A DNA stretch of 64,000 nt from Escherichia coli (GTDB lineage: Bacteria; Pseudomonadota; Gammaproteobacteria; Enterobacterales; Enterobacteriaceae). Of the stretch, positions 3,420-39,945 are shown piece after piece. The DNA is taken from the NCBI RefSeq assembly GCF_016903815.1, contig NZ_CP069973.1. One strand, 5' to 3'. The first letter of the stretch is position 1, and each line of letters opens with the position of its first letter. Under the pieces are notes generated by a model. The model saw only the letters and a list, made by a program, of their open reading frames with translations. It was not told the DNA's origin and made no database searches. The position numbers and the translations under genes are program-made.

Positions 3420-4781
3420 ATGTTTAAACCGGAACTCCTTTCCCCGGCGGGAACGCTGAAAAATATGCGTTACGCTTTCGCTTATGGCGCAGATGCTGTT
3501 TATGCGGGCCAGCCGCGTTACTCCCTGCGTGTGCGCAACAACGAATTTAACCACGAAAATCTTCAGCTCGGCATCAATGAAGCCCACGCGCTGGGGAAAA
3601 AGTTTTATGTCGTGGTCAACATTGCACCGCACAACGCCAAGCTGAAAACCTTTATCCGTGACCTGAAACCGGTGGTGGAAATGGGGCCGGATGCGCTGAT
3701 TATGTCTGATCCAGGGCTGATTATGCTGGTGCGCGAGCACTTCCCTGAAATGCCGATCCATCTCTCAGTACAGGCTAACGCCGTGAACTGGGCGACGGTG
3801 AAATTCTGGCAGCAAATGGGTCTGACCCGCGTGATCCTCTCTCGCGAACTGTCACTGGAAGAGATTGAAGAGATCCGCAATCAGGTGCCAGATATGGAGA
3901 TCGAAATCTTCGTTCACGGCGCGCTGTGCATGGCCTACTCCGGTCGCTGCCTGCTCTCTGGCTATATCAACAAGCGCGACCCGAACCAGGGCACCTGCAC
4001 CAACGCCTGCCGCTGGGAGTATAACGTCCAGGAAGGGAAAGAAGATGACGTCGGCAACATCGTACACAAGTACGAACCGATTCCGGTGCAAAACGTTGAA
4101 CCGACGCTGGGGATCGGCGCACCAACCGACAAAGTGTTTATGATCGAAGAAGCCCAGCGTCCGGGCGAGTATATGACCGCGTTTGAAGATGAGCACGGCA
4201 CTTACATCATGAACTCGAAAGATCTGCGCGCCATCGCCCATGTTGAACGCCTGACCAAAATGGGCGTGCATTCGCTGAAAATCGAAGGCCGTACCAAATC
4301 TTTCTACTATTGCGCACGCACCGCGCAGGTTTACCGTAAAGCTATCGATGACGCAGCTGCGGGAAAACCATTCGATACCAGCCTGCTGGAAACCCTGGAA
4401 GGTCTGGCGCATCGTGGCTATACCGAAGGTTTCCTGCGTCGTCATACTCACGACGATTATCAGAACTACGAATACGGTTATTCAGTTTCTGACCGCCAGC
4501 AGTTTGTTGGTGAGTTTACCAGTGAGCGCAAGGGCGACCTCGCGGCGGTAGCGGTGAAAAATAAATTCTCCGTTGGCGACAGCCTTGAGCTGATGACGCC
4601 GCAAGGGAACATTAACTTTACCCTTGAGCACATGGAAAACGCCAAAGGCGAAGCAATGCCGGTCGCACCGGGCGATGGTTATACTGTGTGGATCCCGGTG
4701 CCGCAGGATCTTGAGCTAAATTACGCGCTGCTGATGCGTAATTTCTCCGGGGAAACCACGCGTAACCCCCACGGTAAGTGA
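3420..4781 (+). CDS. yegQ: Peptidase U32 family protein YegQ (tRNA hydroxylation, TrhP)
   Basis: 453 aa; U32-family features incl. conserved Cys-rich segment; synteny. Confidence 0.85.
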   Translation: MFKPELLSPAGTLKNMRYAFAYGADAVYAGQPRYSLRVRNNEFNHENLQLGINEAHALGKKFYVVVNIAPHNAKLKTFIRDLKPVVEMGPDALIMSDPGLIMLVREHFPEMPIHLSVQANAVNWATVKFWQQMGLTRVILSRELSLEEIEEIRNQVPDMEIEIFVHGALCMAYSGRCLLSGYINKRDPNQGTCTNACRWEYNVQEGKEDDVGNIVHKYEPIPVQNVEPTLGIGAPTDKVFMIEEAQRPGEYMTAFEDEHGTYIMNSKDLRAIAHVERLTKMGVHSLKIEGRTKSFYYCARTAQVYRKAIDDAAAGKPFDTSLLETLEGLAHRGYTEGFLRRHTHDDYQNYEYGYSVSDRQQFVGEFTSERKGDLAAVAVKNKFSVGDSLELMTPQGNINFTLEHMENAKGEAMPVAPGDGYTVWIPVPQDLELNYALLMRNFSGETTRNPHGK

Positions 4782-4865
4782 TTAATTTCGATTATTTTTC
4801 CCGGATGGAAAATTCTTAGAAACCGATCACATACAGCTGCATTTATTAAGGTTATCATCTGTTTC

Positions 4866-4952
4866 GCTGAAAAACATAACCCATAAAATGCTAGCTGTAC
4901 CAGGAACCACCTCCTTAGCCTGTGTAATCTCCCTTACACGGGCTTATTTTTT
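4866..4952 (+). ncRNA. cyaR: CyaR (RyeE) Hfq-dependent sRNA; 3' terminator overlaps the prophage att core
   Basis: Sequence gctgaaaaacataacccataaaatgctagctgtaccaggaaccacctccttagcctgtgtaatctcccttacacgggcttatttttt recognised from memory as CyaR; ends in hairpin plus T-run. Confidence 0.8.
4926..4952. repeat. Prophage attachment-site core, left copy (aatctcccttacacgggcttatttttt)
   Basis: Exact 27-bp repeat also at 38117..38143. Confidence 0.8.
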
Positions 4953-5022
4953 ACGCGTAACACAATGAAATAAAAGGATTTATTTCTGGTCACGTCCACA
5001 CATTGACCACATCGACAAAAAA

Positions 5023-5042
5023 GCCCCTCGACTGAGGGGCTT
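5023..5042 (-). terminator. Rho-independent terminator downstream of ogr
   Basis: GC hairpin gcccctcgactgaggggc followed by a U-run on the minus strand. Confidence 0.6.
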
Positions 5043-5053
5043 CCTGTTTGTAA

Positions 5054-5272
5054 TTACATCCACATAATTTGCTGCCCTGACGGCAACGGGTGCGGTCTTA
5101 CGGCGTGGACTTCTCCCGGCTTCACGATGTATCGCTGTACCGACTCATAAGTGATGAATGTGGCGCTGCAATTCACGTTCTGACACTGGTGATAACGCTC
5201 TTTTGTCGTGTCAGTGATATAGCGGCTTGTACGCGCATGTGCGGCATGCTGGCATAAAGGACAATGAAACAT
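5054..5272 (-). CDS. ogr: Late-gene transcriptional activator Ogr (zinc finger)
   Basis: MFHCPLCQHAAHARTSRYITDTTKERYHQCQNVNC...: Cys4 zinc-finger typical of P2 Ogr / P4 Delta; start chosen at internal Met for ~72 aa. Confidence 0.85.
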   Translation of the reverse strand: MFHCPLCQHAAHARTSRYITDTTKERYHQCQNVNCSATFITYESVQRYIVKPGEVHAVRPHPLPSGQQIMWM

Positions 5273-5353
5273 CGCGAGCACCTCTTCCGGTTTTGTTGAT
5301 GGTGCCATTTTAGTTAATTTATCCTTATAAAACAAACAGATAAATAAATTACA

Positions 5354-6517
5354 TCACTCATCATCTTCTGTTTCGTACTCCACATCAGAAAGCCTGACCT
5401 CAAGCTCTAAGGACGTCGTGAAGCCGCTATTATTCAGAAAATGTGTCACCTTAGTGATTGTCCAGTCCTGCTCGTCTATGACGCGCTTAAAGCCTGATAC
5501 TTTAACCGGTGTTTCCGTGTAAATATCAGCACGACCGGTAGCCAGGCTGATGGAGAACTCCGCAACGCCCCGTTGCAGTTTATCCCACTTCGCCTGAGCG
5601 GCACGCATGGCCTGTGCTTTCGTGGCATATACCGTGGTCAGGGCAAAAACGTTGTCAGCCTCACCGGCCATGTATTCACCTTCGCGCGCTTCCGGTACTT
5701 TTGGCGCTTTCTTCTGCCTGACCGGTTTTGCTTTCGGGTGCTCCAGTGCGCGCAGGTGTTTTTCTTTCTTTTTGCGTTTCAGTTTTACCTTCTGCTTTTG
5801 CGGCTTCGGGTCTTTGGTGTGTAACCACTTTGCCGTTACGCCGGTATAGGCTCCACGGTCAGCAATCGCAAAATGATGGCGGTCGCCGTCGCTGCGGGTG
5901 ATGGTAATCTGCGGGATTTTTTTACCGCTGGCCGTCACCCCCTGCCCCGCTTTGAGAAACAGCAGTTTTCCCATTTTTACCGACACCTCACCGCCGTTGC
6001 GTTCTGCAAGACGGGTCAGGAATTTCGCATCAGACTCCTGCGACTGGTCGATGTGCGGGATTTTAATTCCGGCCAGTGACGGAGCGACACTGGCTTCCAG
6101 CCTGTTACGGGAGGCTATCGCCTCAACAATCGCACCGAGCGTGGTGTCATGCCAGGAGCCTTCCCGGCGGGAATTGAGCGTCCCGCGGAAATCTGCACTC
6201 CGGGCGCGGATGGTGACCACATCCGGCGCGCCCCGGTGTTCAACCTCATCAACGGTGAATTTCCCTTTGCATACCAGGGCAAAACCTTTCCAGCCGATAT
6301 ACACCGTCAGGACAGCGCCACGAACCGGCAGCCCGACCTGCCCGTCGGCATCGTTCAGTTCAATATCAAGCTGGTCAGCTTCAAAGCCCCGGTTATCCGT
6401 CAGAGTCATGCTCATCAGACGGTCGCTGATATTGCCGGTAATATCCCTGCTGTCGAGCATCAGCATGTAATCCGGCGTCAGCGTACTGCCTGCATCAAAT
6501 GTCAGCGCATCCAGCAT
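5354..6517 (-). CDS. D: Tail protein gpD
   Basis: 387 aa; size and position match P2 D; lysine-rich central linker. Confidence 0.85.
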   Translation of the reverse strand: MLDALTFDAGSTLTPDYMLMLDSRDITGNISDRLMSMTLTDNRGFEADQLDIELNDADGQVGLPVRGAVLTVYIGWKGFALVCKGKFTVDEVEHRGAPDVVTIRARSADFRGTLNSRREGSWHDTTLGAIVEAIASRNRLEASVAPSLAGIKIPHIDQSQESDAKFLTRLAERNGGEVSVKMGKLLFLKAGQGVTASGKKIPQITITRSDGDRHHFAIADRGAYTGVTAKWLHTKDPKPQKQKVKLKRKKKEKHLRALEHPKAKPVRQKKAPKVPEAREGEYMAGEADNVFALTTVYATKAQAMRAAQAKWDKLQRGVAEFSISLATGRADIYTETPVKVSGFKRVIDEQDWTITKVTHFLNNSGFTTSLELEVRLSDVEYETEDDE

Positions 6518-6996
6518 TATCCCGCCCCCATCATACCTGTGAATCTGGTCGCCAGACTGCCGGCCTTACCGATGAGCGACTCCGCCTGTTTACCGATATC
6601 GCCATAAAGCGCGGCCAGTGATTCATCAACGCGGGTGAGCGACAGCGTAAAATCAATTTTCCGGGGTGTGCCGTCTGCAAAGAAAATACTCCCTGTTTCA
6701 CTCACCTTGCTGATGACATACATACCGTAAATCATGCCGGTGCCATCCAGCAACGGCCACGCCCGGCCTTCCTCTGCCATCAGTCTGAGCGTGGTCATCG
6801 TCAGCTTGCCGCCGGTCAGTTCGGGATAAAGCACACCGGCAAGCGTGATGTTTTCCTCGCCCACACCGAGAAACTGAAAGGCATCCCGTTTACCGATACG
6901 GGAATTTGACGGCCAGCGATAATCTGATTCACGCTGCATGGTCTGGTGTGGCAGCGTCTGGCGCATAAAAACAAACATACCTAACGCGAGCATCAT
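6517..6996 (-). CDS. U: Tail protein gpU
   Basis: 159 aa; position between T and D. Confidence 0.85.
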   Translation of the reverse strand: MMLALGMFVFMRQTLPHQTMQRESDYRWPSNSRIGKRDAFQFLGVGEENITLAGVLYPELTGGKLTMTTLRLMAEEGRAWPLLDGTGMIYGMYVISKVSETGSIFFADGTPRKIDFTLSLTRVDESLAALYGDIGKQAESLIGKAGSLATRFTGMMGAG

Positions 6997-7010
6997 TTTT
7001 CGTCACCTCC

Positions 7011-9458
7011 TTAACCGTCATGCATCATGCTGGCACGGGCGCGCGCACGTTTATCCCGCTCGTATTTTTCGAGCGCATCCTGTAACTGGCGGTCGAGCTG
7101 AGTCCCCGGCGCAGTACCGCCCGTCAGACTGATGTGATATTCGTTTTTACTCTGGTCCACATAAGAGCGGCCAGCCGGTGCCGTAACCGGCTGATAAGCC
7201 TGATAGCCTGCATAAGAGCTGGTCGCCGGAATATAACCACCGGTGCCATACGTGGCGGCATGAGTTCTGGCGGCGGTCTGGTCAAGCGTGCCTGACTCTT
7301 TGTTGATAACACCGAGTTTTTCCAGTACCCAGTCAATACCGCTGCGCAGTTTGTTGAACGCATTAAGCGGCAGCATCAACGCGTCAGCCAGTGCCTGCCC
7401 GAACATGACGCCCGTATCACGGCAACGGTTCAGGGTGTCCCGGGTGGCTTTGACCGGGGCAATCAGGTTTTTAAACCACTGCCACGCGGCCTGTAACTTT
7501 TCGCCCAGCCAGTCAAACACCGGCTTAAGTGGCGTGAACAGTTCCCCCACCGGCGCAAATGCCGCTTTCAGCCCTTCAACCACACCGCCAAAGAATGCGC
7601 TGACAGGCTCCCAGTATTTACGGATAAGTAACGCCCCGGCGACAATGGCGGCCACCACGGCCACAACCGGCCAGCTAATCGCCCCGATGGCCGTCATAAC
7701 AGCACTGCCAACCGTCGTGAAGATTGCTCCCATTGCGCCTGCTGCCGCGATGATGGCATTGATGCCGGTGATAACCGGCCAGGCTACGAGGCCAATGGCA
7801 CCGATGACACCAATCAGTGCCAGTGCACCACCGACAATGATGCCGATGGTTAACGCCAGTGATTTGTTTTTCTGTATCCAGCCGTCGAGTTTTAACACAT
7901 ACTTTGTGGCCGTCTGCGTGAGCTTACGCAGTGCGCCTTCCTGCTGGTCAAACAGGTCAGTCCCCACCGCCTCATAAGCGGACTGAAACTCCTTAAAGTC
8001 ACCGCCGAGGTTGTCCTGCATGATATTTACCAGCTCGGCGGTCTTCCCGTCTGAGGCTTTAAACGCAGCGGTCAGTTTGTCCAGCTTTCCAGTTGAGGCG
8101 GCAGTCATCAGCACGGCGGCGGCTGAGCTGGCCTCCTCCCCGAAAATAGTTTTCATGTATTCAGCCTGCTGGGCAGTACCGAGCCGGTTTTTCTCAAAAC
8201 TGGCCTGCATTTCTTTCAGAATGGTAAATACTGGTCGAGTATTCCCTTTACTGTCTGAGGTTTTCACGCCAAGCTCTTTCAGTGCATCCCATGCTTTTCC
8301 CGTCGGTGCCTGCAGGCGGCTTAACACGGCACGGCTTCCCGTCCCCGCCATTGAACCGGTAATTTTTGCATCATGCAGCGCCCCGACCATTGCGGCGGTT
8401 TCTTCAATGCTGACACCAGCATTTTTTGCCACAGGTGCGGCATAGGTCAGCGCATCGCTCATGCCATCAAAATCGGCGGCGGTTTTGTTCATCGTCATGG
8501 AGAGAACATCCCCGATATGAGCGACCTTATCGTTTGAAAGCTGAAAGGCGGATTTCATCCCCATCAGCAGGGCGGCGTTTTCTTCCATCGTGCGACGGTT
8601 CGCCAGCGCCATATTCAGCGTGACCGGCGTTGCCGCCTGAATGGCATCAACATCCCCACCGGCTTTCGCAATAATAATCTGCGCACCGGCTGCATCATCT
8701 GCCGAGGCTGCGGTATTGTTGCCGAGCTGGCGCGCCTGCTTGCGTAGTGCAGCCATTTCGGCGGAGTCTTTTGCCACACCGAGCACAGCCTGCAATTCTG
8801 AGTTTTTCTGCGCAAACTCATAACCGGGCATCAGCAACTTAACTCCGGCCATCGTTCCCGCAGCAGCAATCCCCACACCGGCAGCGCCCACCGAGGCCAT
8901 ATTTCCGGCCAGTTCCTTTCCGGCCTGATAACGCTGTTTTACTGCGTTAAGTTTTGCCTGTTGTGCACTGACACGCGCCAGCGCGTCACGCTGACGGTTA
9001 AGCTGTGCGGTGGTTTCACTGATACGGTTTTTCAGTCCCTGCTCATCATGTGCAAGATTGCGGGTATTAATTCCCACAGCGGCCAGTTCCCGCTGCTGGC
9101 GTTTAATGGAATCTGTCAGGCGGTTATATTTCGCCTGTAAGTCCTCCGCCGCACGCTTTGCGGATTCCAGCACTTTCGCCTGAGCACGGGTCGGACGTTC
9201 GGTATTTTTAAACTGTGTGGCAAGGGCTTCGGCCTCCTGCCGAGCCTTTTCAAGTGCATGACCAGTCACGGCGAGCTGTGCACTGGTCTTGCGGAATCCC
9301 TCAATACGGGATGCCTGACCGTTCAGCTCGCGCAGTGATTTTTGTGTTTCCCGGATATCCCCCGACAGCGATTTGCTCGCTGTGCGGATGGATTTAAACG
9401 GGCGGGATGCCTGGTCAACAGCCCTGAGCAATACCTGTAATTTTACATTGTTACTCAT
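7011..9458 (-). CDS. T: Tail tape measure protein gpT
   Basis: 815 aa; long coiled-coil N-terminus, Gly/Ala-rich hydrophobic central region. Confidence 0.9.
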   Translation of the reverse strand: MSNNVKLQVLLRAVDQASRPFKSIRTASKSLSGDIRETQKSLRELNGQASRIEGFRKTSAQLAVTGHALEKARQEAEALATQFKNTERPTRAQAKVLESAKRAAEDLQAKYNRLTDSIKRQQRELAAVGINTRNLAHDEQGLKNRISETTAQLNRQRDALARVSAQQAKLNAVKQRYQAGKELAGNMASVGAAGVGIAAAGTMAGVKLLMPGYEFAQKNSELQAVLGVAKDSAEMAALRKQARQLGNNTAASADDAAGAQIIIAKAGGDVDAIQAATPVTLNMALANRRTMEENAALLMGMKSAFQLSNDKVAHIGDVLSMTMNKTAADFDGMSDALTYAAPVAKNAGVSIEETAAMVGALHDAKITGSMAGTGSRAVLSRLQAPTGKAWDALKELGVKTSDSKGNTRPVFTILKEMQASFEKNRLGTAQQAEYMKTIFGEEASSAAAVLMTAASTGKLDKLTAAFKASDGKTAELVNIMQDNLGGDFKEFQSAYEAVGTDLFDQQEGALRKLTQTATKYVLKLDGWIQKNKSLALTIGIIVGGALALIGVIGAIGLVAWPVITGINAIIAAAGAMGAIFTTVGSAVMTAIGAISWPVVAVVAAIVAGALLIRKYWEPVSAFFGGVVEGLKAAFAPVGELFTPLKPVFDWLGEKLQAAWQWFKNLIAPVKATRDTLNRCRDTGVMFGQALADALMLPLNAFNKLRSGIDWVLEKLGVINKESGTLDQTAARTHAATYGTGGYIPATSSYAGYQAYQPVTAPAGRSYVDQSKNEYHISLTGGTAPGTQLDRQLQDALEKYERDKRARARASMMHDG

Positions 9459-37023: not shown

Positions 37024-38037
37024 ATGGCAATCAAAAAACTCGATGATGGTCGATATGAAGTGGACATTCGCCCTACTGGACGTAACGGAAAACGCATCCG
37101 TAGGAAGTTTGATAAGAAAAGCGAAGCTGTCGCTTTCGAAAAATACACGTTGTACAACCACCACAATAAAGAATGGCTATCAAAACCAACAGACAAACGA
37201 CGTCTGTCGGAACTGACACAGATCTGGTGGGATTTAAAGGGTAAACACGAAGAGCATGGGAAATCTAATCTTGGAAAAATTGAAATCTTCACAAAAATAA
37301 CGAATGACCCATGCGCATTTCAAATCACGAAATCCCTTATCAGCCAGTACTGCGCCACCCGAAGAAGTCAGGGTATTAAACCTTCGAGTATCAATCGTGA
37401 TTTAACATGTATTAGCGGCATGTTTACAGCCCTGATTGAAGCGGAGTTATTCTTTGGTGAGCACCCTATCAGAGGGACAAAGAGGCTTAAGGAGGAAAAA
37501 CCAGAAACAGGCTATCTCACACAGGAAGAAATTGCCTTACTGCTTGCAGCACTTGACGGCGACAATAAAAAGATTGCGATTCTTTGCCTGAGTACAGGAG
37601 CACGTTGGGGAGAAGCAGCTCGTTTGAAAGCAGAAAATATCATCCATAACCGCGTCACGTTTGTTAAAACGAAAACAAACAAACCACGCACCGTCCCGAT
37701 CTCAGAGGCTGTTGCCAAAATGATCGCGGATAACAAACGAGGTTTTTTATTCCCTGATGCTGATTACCCTCGCTTCAGACGAACAATGAAAGCAATAAAA
37801 CCGGATTTGCCAACGGGGCAAGCCACACATGCACTAAGGCACAGCTTTGCCACTCATTTCATGATTAATGGAGGAAGTATTATCACGCTACAACGGATAC
37901 TAGGTCACACGCGGATTGAGCAAACTATGGTTTACGCTCATTTTGCGCCAGAGTACCTTCAGGACGCCATTTCTCTTAATCCGCTAAGAGGTGGTACTGA
38001 AGCCGAGAGTGTCCACACAGTGTCCACAGTAGAGTAA
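37024..38037 (+). CDS. int: Tyrosine integrase
   Basis: 337 aa; C-terminal catalytic motifs (HALRHSFATHF ... LGHTRIEQTMVYAH). Confidence 0.9.
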   Translation: MAIKKLDDGRYEVDIRPTGRNGKRIRRKFDKKSEAVAFEKYTLYNHHNKEWLSKPTDKRRLSELTQIWWDLKGKHEEHGKSNLGKIEIFTKITNDPCAFQITKSLISQYCATRRSQGIKPSSINRDLTCISGMFTALIEAELFFGEHPIRGTKRLKEEKPETGYLTQEEIALLLAALDGDNKKIAILCLSTGARWGEAARLKAENIIHNRVTFVKTKTNKPRTVPISEAVAKMIADNKRGFLFPDADYPRFRRTMKAIKPDLPTGQATHALRHSFATHFMINGGSIITLQRILGHTRIEQTMVYAHFAPEYLQDAISLNPLRGGTEAESVHTVSTVE

Positions 38038-38116
38038 CGTTTAAGGGCTTTCAGTGGTAATTTATGCCGCTCAAACCCGCATTGTACCGTTGAAAGCCCC
38101 TACTGGTGACACCCTA

Positions 38117-38143
38117 AATCTCCCTTACACGGGCTTATTTTTT
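38117..38143. repeat. Prophage attachment-site core, right copy
   Basis: Identical 27 bp to 4926..4952. Confidence 0.8.
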
Positions 38144-38313
38144 GTGCATAAACCATAGAGACGGATTGATCCCAGGTGACCGTCTTCCATTGACCACATC
38201 GATAGAATCTCCCTTCATAGCACGATGCCTTTCACGTAACGGCATCGTGCTCGCACAGGTTCCGGCTAAGCACAACCAGAACGCGCATGTTTGACGCTTA
38301 CCAAAAAATATTC

Positions 38314-38631
38314 TCACTCTCCACATTTGAATGTCAGACGAGCGACGCCATGTAATCCTGCACCTTCTGTCTTCAGGTCAACTATCTGCATTTTTTTGCC
38401 CTGAGTAACACAGAAATGAGCTGCATCATTTTTTACTATATTTTCTGCACCAGATATTCTGCCCCTGGCTAAAGAAGCTTCGGCTTCGGTGTAGTATTGG
38501 TTATCGAGTTTACGCTGAATATTACTTTTATATGCAAGACCAAATTTACCGATACTTGTCTCATCATTATGTACAGCACACCCAGACATAAGAAAAACAC
38601 TAATTAATGATATAGCAGCTATCTTTTTCAT
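38314..38631 (-). CDS. yegR: Lipoprotein YegR
   Basis: MKKIAAISLISVFLMSGC lipobox signal; synteny. Confidence 0.75.
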   Translation of the reverse strand: MKKIAAISLISVFLMSGCAVHNDETSIGKFGLAYKSNIQRKLDNQYYTEAEASLARGRISGAENIVKNDAAHFCVTQGKKMQIVDLKTEGAGLHGVARLTFKCGE

Positions 38632-39045
38632 CTTACCTTCCCCCATTAAATACCAACGACACGCTCTGGTGTTAAAATATAATAATGGCATGATTATTAT
38701 AATTGAATAGGATTATAATAAATGTTCTGTACAACATTTCCTACATAAGTAGGAATTACAAACATGAAGCCCTGCCCAGGTATCCCCATGAGGGCTTTAA
38801 TATATTTAGAATAAGATAGTGAAGATGCCACTGTTTAGTTGAATATTAGGTATATGCTCTTTTTTGAAATTTACCGGTGGCTACCGTTAACATTCACTGT
38901 CCCCATTGCAAGCTCCTGGTGGTAACCACTGAATCCTCCATACTTGAACTGATTTTTTATCCTCCGACTTTCATCCTGTTCTGACTCCACCTTTTCTTTT
39001 CTGCTCTACACTATCTACAGACCAATCATAAAGGCACATACGATC

Positions 39046-39945
39046 ATGGCAGAATTTCCCGCCAGCTTACTGATTCTTAATGGCAAAAGTACTGACAATT
39101 TACCATTGCGCGAAGCAATTATGCTGTTGCGTGAGGAAGGAATGACGATCCATGTGCGGGTCACCTGGGAGAAAGGCGATGCCGCACGATATGTAGAGGA
39201 GGCCCGGAAGTTGGGCGTCGCAACGGTGATTGCCGGTGGTGGCGATGGCACCATTAATGAAGTTTCTACGGCGTTGATTCAGTGTGAGGGGGATGACATA
39301 CCCGCGCTAGGAATTTTGCCATTAGGAACCGCCAATGATTTTGCCACCAGTGTAAGGATTCCTGAGGCACTGGATAAGGCGCTGAAACTGGCAATTGCCG
39401 GTGACGCCATTGCGATAGATATGGCGCAGGTCAACAAACAAACCTGTTTTATTAATATGGCGACAGGCGGATTTGGGACGCGTATTACCACAGAAACGCC
39501 GGAAAAATTAAAAGCCGCGCTGGGTGGCGTCTCTTACATCATTCATGGCTTAATGCGCATGGATACTCTGCAACCGGACCGTTGTGAGATCCGCGGTGAA
39601 AACTTTCACTGGCAAGGTGACGCCCTGGTCATTGGTATTGGTAACGGGCGTCAGGCCGGTGGCGGTCAGCAATTGTGCCCGAACGCGTTAATTAACGATG
39701 GCTTGCTGCAACTGCGCATTTTTACCGGCGATGAAATTCTTCCGGCTCTCGTATCAACATTAAAATCTGACGAAGATAACCCGAATATTATCGAAGGCGC
39801 TTCGTCGTGGTTTGATATACAAGCCCCACACGAAATCACTTTTAATCTTGATGGCGAACCGTTGAGCGGACAAAACTTTCATATTGAAATACTTCCGGCG
39901 GCGTTGCGTTGTCGATTACCACCAGATTGCCCATTGTTGCGTTAA
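39046..39945 (+). CDS. yegS: Lipid kinase YegS
   Basis: 299 aa; diacylglycerol-kinase catalytic motif GGDGT. Confidence 0.9.

Follow-up and report, generated by a model that had tools for sequence, protein, structure and literature searches.

The chromosomal DNA bordering the right attachment site (attR) of a P2-like prophage in Escherichia coli is most probably the left end of a fossil P2-type element, which entered the terminator of the small RNA gene cyaR in an ancestor of E. coli and decayed in place. The window, by which we mean the whole 64,000-nucleotide stretch of DNA analysed here, is E. coli chromosome, and the flank beside its attR is identical (100%) in strain 7/2. This flank opens a block whose two ends are both homologous to the ends of P2-type elements, which is an insertion relative to outgroup genomes and which is present species-wide. 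We further infer that a single event made the whole block, that the gene yegR arrived in it as cargo and that recombination no longer involves the relic.

Coordinates refer to the window, and features lie on its plus strand unless the minus strand is named. The sRNA gene cyaR (ryeE) occupies 4864-4952; Rfam family RF00112 matches it at 4864-4949 with 100.7 bits, and the sequence runs on into the T-run at 4952. The 3' half of the cyaR terminator is the P2 attachment core, and its 27-bp copy at attL (AATCTCCCTTACACGGGCTTATTTTTT, 4926-4952) is identical to the copy at attR (38117-38143) and to the annotated attP core of P2 (AF063097). In empty-site genomes, cyaR is joined directly to the sequence from 38144 onward. 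The core at 38117-38143 is therefore, in the unoccupied chromosome, the terminator of cyaR and the attB, and it is also the attL core of the fossil element.

Between the two core copies lies a modern P2-like (Peduovirus) prophage (4953-38116, no strand assigned), with its ogr/D end adjoining cyaR and its int end at the right (int ORF, 37024-38037). The ogr/D end is 96–98% identical to P2 and related Peduovirus records, and the P' side is near-identical to that of P2. The GenBank annotation of P2, mapped onto the window, places the IHF region at 4951-4984 and the ogr terminator at 5020-5043. Mapped in the same way at a constant offset, the site annotated "protein_bind Int, P arm" (1563-1590 of P2 locus L001) corresponds to 4988-5015, and the P'-arm integrase-binding site (L001 1387-1413), with two copies of GTGTCCACA, corresponds to 38003-38029. 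The modern P arm has two arm-type repeats, which read as reverse complements TGTGGACG and TGTGGTCA; the consensus of the arm-type Int repeats of P2-type phages is tgTGGaCa (PMC3448106).

The host flank at 38144-38204 aligns collinearly with the P arms of P2 and P2-type elements, and we read it as a relic of the P-side attP arm of the fossil element. One arm-type repeat of this arm is intact (TGACCACA, 38191-38198) and the second is decayed. On the opposite strand the intact repeat reads TGTGGTCA, identical to one of the two P-arm repeats of P2, and it fits the consensus tgTGGaCa. The flank also aligns with the P arms of P2-type elements located at cyaR in Citrobacter, Enterobacter and E. albertii.

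The preliminary description of this region had noticed a 30-mer shared beyond each core copy. Both are present, ctggtcacgtccacacattgaccacatcga beside attL and caggtgaccgtcttccattgaccacatcga beside attR (38173-38202), although the first lies at 4986-5015, one base from where it had been placed. The two have in common an exact 15-mer, CATTGACCACATCGA, which begins 49 nt past the core at attL and 45 nt past it at attR, and a weaker collinear similarity of the two flanks runs from the core edge over approximately 75 bp. Because exact 14–17-mers arise by chance elsewhere in the 34-kb span, the evidence from the flanks is the collinear position together with the extended alignment, not the 15-mer alone. 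Local alignment of one flank against the other, with the cores left out, gives a score of 20, while shuffled sequences average 6.7 (s.d. 1.2) and none of 5000 reaches 20.

Comparison with relatives defines how far the inserted DNA extends. The outgroups come from one scan of species-representative genomes seeded with cyaR, which yielded 96 loci (E. fergusonii, Salmonella and Shigella are not in this sample). Directly after the cyaR terminator, E69, Escherichia sp. E1V33 and E. whittamii have only a spacer of approximately 85 nt and then yegS; "E. coli" E69 is 89–95% identical and therefore represents a separate lineage. The adjacency of cyaR and yegS is also seen in Klebsiella, Enterobacter, Kosakonia, Atlantibacter and others. 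BLAST alignments of the outgroups to the window break at 4952 and at 38949-38953, so that E. coli carries, besides the modern prophage, an extra block of approximately 815 bp (38144-38958), whose insertion point, judged against unoccupied relatives, is precisely the att core.

The block is followed by the ancestral cyaR-yegS spacer (38959-39045), which comes directly after the cyaR terminator in E69, E1V33 and E. whittamii. Beyond it lies yegS (39046-39945), a lipid kinase ORF annotated in K-12, Nissle and O157, which adjoins cyaR in many genera and is its ancestral right-hand neighbour. The scar suspected earlier beside attR is thus P2-related, as had been thought, but it is not a piece of some 70 bp: it is the left end of the 815-bp block that includes yegR. 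The outgroup pattern could in principle also reflect precise loss of the block in these lineages instead of its gain in E. coli.

The right end of the block carries a degenerate att core (AATCCTCCATACTTGAACTGATTTTTT, 38932-38958), which matches the intact core at 19 of 27 positions without gaps, a match equalled by 7 of 5000 shuffles; the breaks in the outgroup alignments at 38949-38953 fall within it. The core is accordingly found as a direct repeat at both ends of the block, perfect at the left (38117-38143) and decayed at the right, where it abuts the ancestral spacer at exactly the point at which the outgroups join cyaR to the spacer before yegS. To its left lies P'-side-like sequence (38894-38931), which can be aligned with the modern P' side without any shift relative to the core: these approximately 38 bp resemble the P' (Cox-site) region (35 of 5000 shuffles as good) and bear no likeness to the 5' part of cyaR (4551 of 5000 shuffles as good). 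Since the sequence preceding the degenerate core is P'-like and not cyaR-like, this end looks like an attR. The P'-arm repeat pair was not found at the expected position approximately 100 bp upstream of the degenerate core. Conservation of the degenerate core, together with its flank, extends across E. coli phylogroups (K-12, Nissle, O157 and DG351), and the attR of E. albertii forms a bridge, in that it aligns both to the modern attR and to the E. coli relic.

We assessed the distribution of the block in complete E. coli genomes. The segment 38146-38700 is matched in 5417 of 5426 (with at least 80% coverage in 5390), and an artificial empty site composed of cyaR, core and flank is matched as a single place in 4562. 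In these approximately 4560 genomes the flank is contiguous with cyaR, the site being empty or holding a small remnant only; in O157, 042, NCTC9087, EC444 and YDC107, for example, cyaR runs straight into ...ACCGTCTTCCATTGACCACATCGATAGAATC.... The alignment with empty-site strains that had been proposed as a check thus shows that the flank is not strain-specific, and the alignment with K-12 places the same flank behind the ogrK-D' remnant.

It had been allowed that the flank could prove to be ordinary conserved host sequence unrelated to P2 ends. Ordinary it is, being the normal cyaR-yegR flank of nearly all E. coli, but it is related to P2 ends. The earlier suggestion that the phage integrated into an att site already carrying a decayed P2-like remnant is supported by the homology at both ends, by the insertion relative to outgroups and by the empty-site genomes, which bear the remnant.

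The first approximately 35 bp of the relic (38144-38178) exist as two sharply different alleles that are a 12-bp indel apart. The long allele, present in the window and in YDC107, is the more P2-like of the two and is carried by a small minority of strains, at occupied and at empty sites; the short allele is found in most strains. As YDC107 has the long allele at an empty site, the modern prophage did not create it. The arm repeat stands 47 nt from the core in the long allele and 35 nt in the common short allele, versus 51 nt in P2, and the IHF region of the relic is poorly kept in E. coli. A functional attP-like site would hold two arm repeats at native spacing and an IHF site; here a single repeat survives and the spacing is shortened.

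At the other side of the block, the segment 38690-39045 (the yegR-yegS intergenic region) is present in 5288 of the 5426 genomes. It is only 90–95% identical between the lineage of the window and 5238 E. coli genomes, a divergence far above that usual for core DNA. E. coli 042 (608-777 of its locus) and Nissle possess an extra AT-rich segment of approximately 170 bp just downstream of yegR, with a possible ORF of 42 codons, which is absent from the window, K-12 and O157; its absence from some lineages suggests that deletion inside the block may be ongoing.

Inside the block the GC content falls to 33–38%. The only gene is yegR (38314-38631, minus strand), which encodes a lipoprotein of 105 amino acids with the lipobox LMSGC in its translation; the protein is named YegR in RefSeq genomes, carries the precomputed Pfam tag PF27694 and has been detected as a lipoprotein in the O157 proteome (PMC3210124). 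A local copy of Pfam gave nothing above the cut-off for YegR. The region upstream of yegR is AT-rich. Outside E. coli and Shigella the gene is essentially absent; divergent homologues are rare and occur in unrelated contexts. For these (Enterobacter sp. BIDMC 29 and metagenome contigs) a link to P2 was considered and rejected, as their surroundings are IS-flanked or ordinary chromosomal. The homologue in Enterobacter sp. BIDMC 29 (6001-6318), 51% identical to YegR, lies among IS elements beside genes for an omptin and an MFS transporter, a context which suggests that the yegR family may move horizontally by routes other than P2.

No P2 genes (int, ogr, D and others) were recovered inside the block by tblastn of all prophage ORFs, which returned noise only; we therefore class the block as an att-bounded relic of a P2-type integrative element and not as a recognisable prophage. 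Nor was any extant phage found with a yegR homologue, except where prophage boundaries were over-extended. The only phage records that resemble the block or YegR are ON470606, which is prophage-derived and runs into host DNA, and "Phage TP", which has a K-12-like junction; neither was retained. A scan of IMG/VR for YegR kept 80 loci, all at least 95% identical, and in most of the predicted prophage contigs yegR is terminal or nearly so. This pattern looks like over-extension of boundaries and not like independent carriage of yegR by phages. The PHROG family phrog_21109 matches YegR over its full length (E = 2e-72). As P2-like IMG/VR contigs very often end on yegR and a PHROG family matches its product, prophage callers appear to over-extend routinely into the relic.

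Two hairpins accompany yegR. The first (38219-38251, minus strand; −24.6 kcal/mol, z = −4.3) has a perfect 11-bp stem without a T tract and lies approximately 60 nt downstream of the yegR stop codon. A scan for intrinsic terminators called none in the block, this hairpin included, and Rfam returned no RNA family for 37500-39500. The second (38754-38800, minus strand) resembles the terminator of the P2 ogr/F operon and the bases that follow it, with an 18/19-nt match to 5037-5055. It is inverted relative to the P-arm relic, and the match reaches this level in the window allele only, other E. coli alleles being less similar, so it counts as weak evidence. The hairpin at 38760-38800, upstream of yegR, is unusually variable: both arms of its stem differ among the window, K-12, Nissle, O157 and DG351, and the allele of the window is the closest to the ogr terminator of P2.

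These observations are consistent with the following history. An ancestor of E. coli would have acquired a P2-type integrative element in the P2 att core, within the terminator of cyaR, and the element would later have decayed in situ to the att-bounded fossil of approximately 815 bp (38144-38958) that retains yegR. From left to right, the survivors would be approximately 60 bp of P-side arm, a hairpin, yegR with its AT-rich upstream region, approximately 40 bp of P' side and the degenerate core. The left core would have been kept perfect because it is the working terminator of cyaR, and, being intact, it is still usable as attB by modern P2-like phages, the one in the window included. Modern phages would thus integrate at the left core of the fossil, which explains why their attR abuts its P arm and gives rise to the resemblance noticed earlier. 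K-12 would represent the same process one generation later, with ogrK-D' lying between cyaR and the flank. Read in this way, the sequence comparisons support the view that the P2 attachment site of E. coli is probably the attL of a fossil P2-type element. Weighing against this history are the failure to find P2 genes in the block or yegR in extant phages, the non-phage settings of divergent YegR homologues, the missing P'-arm repeats, the poorly kept IHF region and the altered distance between arm repeat and core.

A history of two or more events deserves consideration, although we regard it as improbable. Only the left piece of approximately 60 bp (38144-38204) would then be a P2 scar, produced by a later integration and imprecise loss, and yegR with the rest would be an older or unrelated insertion. 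Several observations are compatible with it: the left approximately 35 bp occur in two very different alleles, a piece resembling the P2 terminator is inverted at 38754-38800, and K-12 proves that remnants can stack at the cyaR site. Moreover, in a divergent Escherichia (L029, labelled E. coli SCPM-O-B-8794) the left relic is a different one, while the sequence downstream of it is the same: after cyaR, at 3495-3660, this genome carries P2-like IHF-region sequence without the arm repeat, followed by approximately 95 nt of unique sequence and then by the E. coli block again from the equivalent of 38251.

A possible partial core right after the P-arm relic points in the same direction. The preliminary description had reported a third copy of the core start at 38205-38216; the 10-mer AATCTCCCTT (38206-38215) is indeed identical to the core start, but the two bases that follow it are "ca" where the core has "ac". 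It may be a relic of another core copy or a product of chance: 46 of 5000 shuffles (approximately 1%) contain a core match of this length, and one other, unrelated match of 10 nt to the core lies in the window. The 10-mer varies among E. coli alleles as well, with AATCCTCCTT in K-12 and Nissle and AATCCCCCTT in DG351. A second degenerate attL following it was tried and rejected, the alignment of 38203-38300 with core plus P arm not being significant (265 of 5000 shuffles). Against a history of several events stand a 10-mer that is variable and only marginally above chance and the attL-like and attR-like ends of the whole block, which are most simply explained by one element.

A different question is whether the fossil still takes part in P2 biology. 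The preferred P2 site could be a fossil attL whose Int repeat still matters; the modern attR would then be a near-attP, made up of P' arm, core and pseudo-P arm, that could bias Int binding, site preference or the directionality of excision, perhaps depending on the flank allele, and yegR would be domesticated cargo kept by selection. We find this doubtful. That the surviving Int repeat plays a part today seems unlikely: its distance from the core is 47 or 35 nt, not 51 nt, and degradation has affected both the second repeat and the IHF region.

The similarity could in principle have arisen in the opposite direction, with the P arm of P2 descending from the downstream flank of E. coli cyaR through aberrant excision. 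It is true that 3' gene ends of host origin occur in phages integrating into RNA genes, and here the similarity lies on one side only and runs collinearly with the order in the host. Such a capture is nevertheless very unlikely, because sister Escherichia lineages and other genera, where cyaR abuts yegS, lack the flank; because P2-type elements from Citrobacter, Enterobacter, Huaxiibacter and E. albertii share this P arm and have cores that fit their hosts; and because the arm repeats fit a family-wide consensus that is also present in the P' arm. The block has, in addition, an attR-like right end. Least credible of all is an origin without phage ancestry, by chance or by local duplication of the cyaR/att region, both raised in the preliminary description: exact 14–17-mers do occur by chance in the 34-kb span and the third "core copy" is near chance level, but no shuffle of 5000 reaches the flank score, the match is collinear with the core, and what precedes the degenerate core resembles the P' side and not the 5' part of cyaR (4551 of 5000 shuffles as good), a comparison that speaks against duplication of cyaR.

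Our preferred reading, decay in place of one P2-type element, makes the scar beside cyaR an evolutionary relic and implies no new mechanism. It accounts for the likeness to a phage end of the chromosome beside the main E. coli attachment site for P2, corrects the host boundary of modern P2-like prophages at cyaR, and places yegR, an orphan lipoprotein gene restricted to E. coli, inside an att-bounded fossil island. The ends of the relic can mislead att-site finders. The region is also a clear example of repeated integration and decay at one att site in an sRNA gene, in Escherichia, Citrobacter and Enterobacter.

Prophage remnants at att sites are well known, that of K-12 at this very site among them. 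PMC3032704 names cyaR among the sites of P2-type integration for E. coli W, K-12 and B, and lists the K-12 remnant there as "ogr-D'". In the literature on yegR, cyaR and P2 that we covered, we found no description of an older species-wide relic or of yegR within one. The cryptic K-12 remnant ogrK-yegZ (D') at cyaR was reportedly described by Barreiro and Haggard-Ljungquist in 1992, an article outside that coverage. Like the relic reported here, ogrK-D' is a decayed P2-type prophage with the same att core and orientation and with its P arm beside cyaR. It differs in being young (about 96–97% identical to P2), in keeping ogr and part of D, in occurring in some strains only, and in having a right junction that cuts into the attR core, whereas the older relic lies behind it, is far more decayed, has no phage genes and is found in nearly all E. 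coli.

Another parallel is seen in E. albertii NBRC 107761 (about 4990-8325), where an island of approximately 3.3 kb between cyaR and yegS consists of an interrupted P arm, the cdtA/cdtB/cdtC toxin operon and an attR. As in the E. coli block, the phage genes of a P2-type remnant seated in the cyaR core are gone, and its cargo and both att ends persist. In contrast, the cargo is cdtABC and not yegR, an IS3-family element interrupts the P arm, the core is the variant ACGCAGGC, and the attR is well preserved (84% to modern P2), unlike the degenerate right end in E. coli. The cdtABC remnant appears to be an independent and younger event.

Elsewhere, a P2-type P arm follows cyaR in Citrobacter, Enterobacter and Huaxiibacter genomes; the cores fit the cyaR variants of the respective hosts and the cargo varies. 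These loci show the cyaR site as a probable collecting point for decaying P2-type elements in several genera. In Citrobacter youngae and Enterobacter sp. the P arm after cyaR is followed by non-P2 cargo ORFs and portal-gene fragments, which look like rearranged remnants. A contig in a metagenome-assembled genome labelled Collinsella joins E. coli cyaR to a P2-like prophage end and is almost certainly a binning contaminant.

The attP of P2 itself (AF063097), composed of P' arm, Cox sites, core, IHF site and P arm, provides the reference for what has been retained. The block agrees with it in the order of P' side, core and P side around it and in one arm-type repeat that is identical to that of P2. 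It departs from attP in its second P-arm repeat, its IHF region and its P'-arm repeats, which have decayed or are absent, and in a spacing shorter than that of P2, by 4 bp in the long allele and by 16 bp in the short one.
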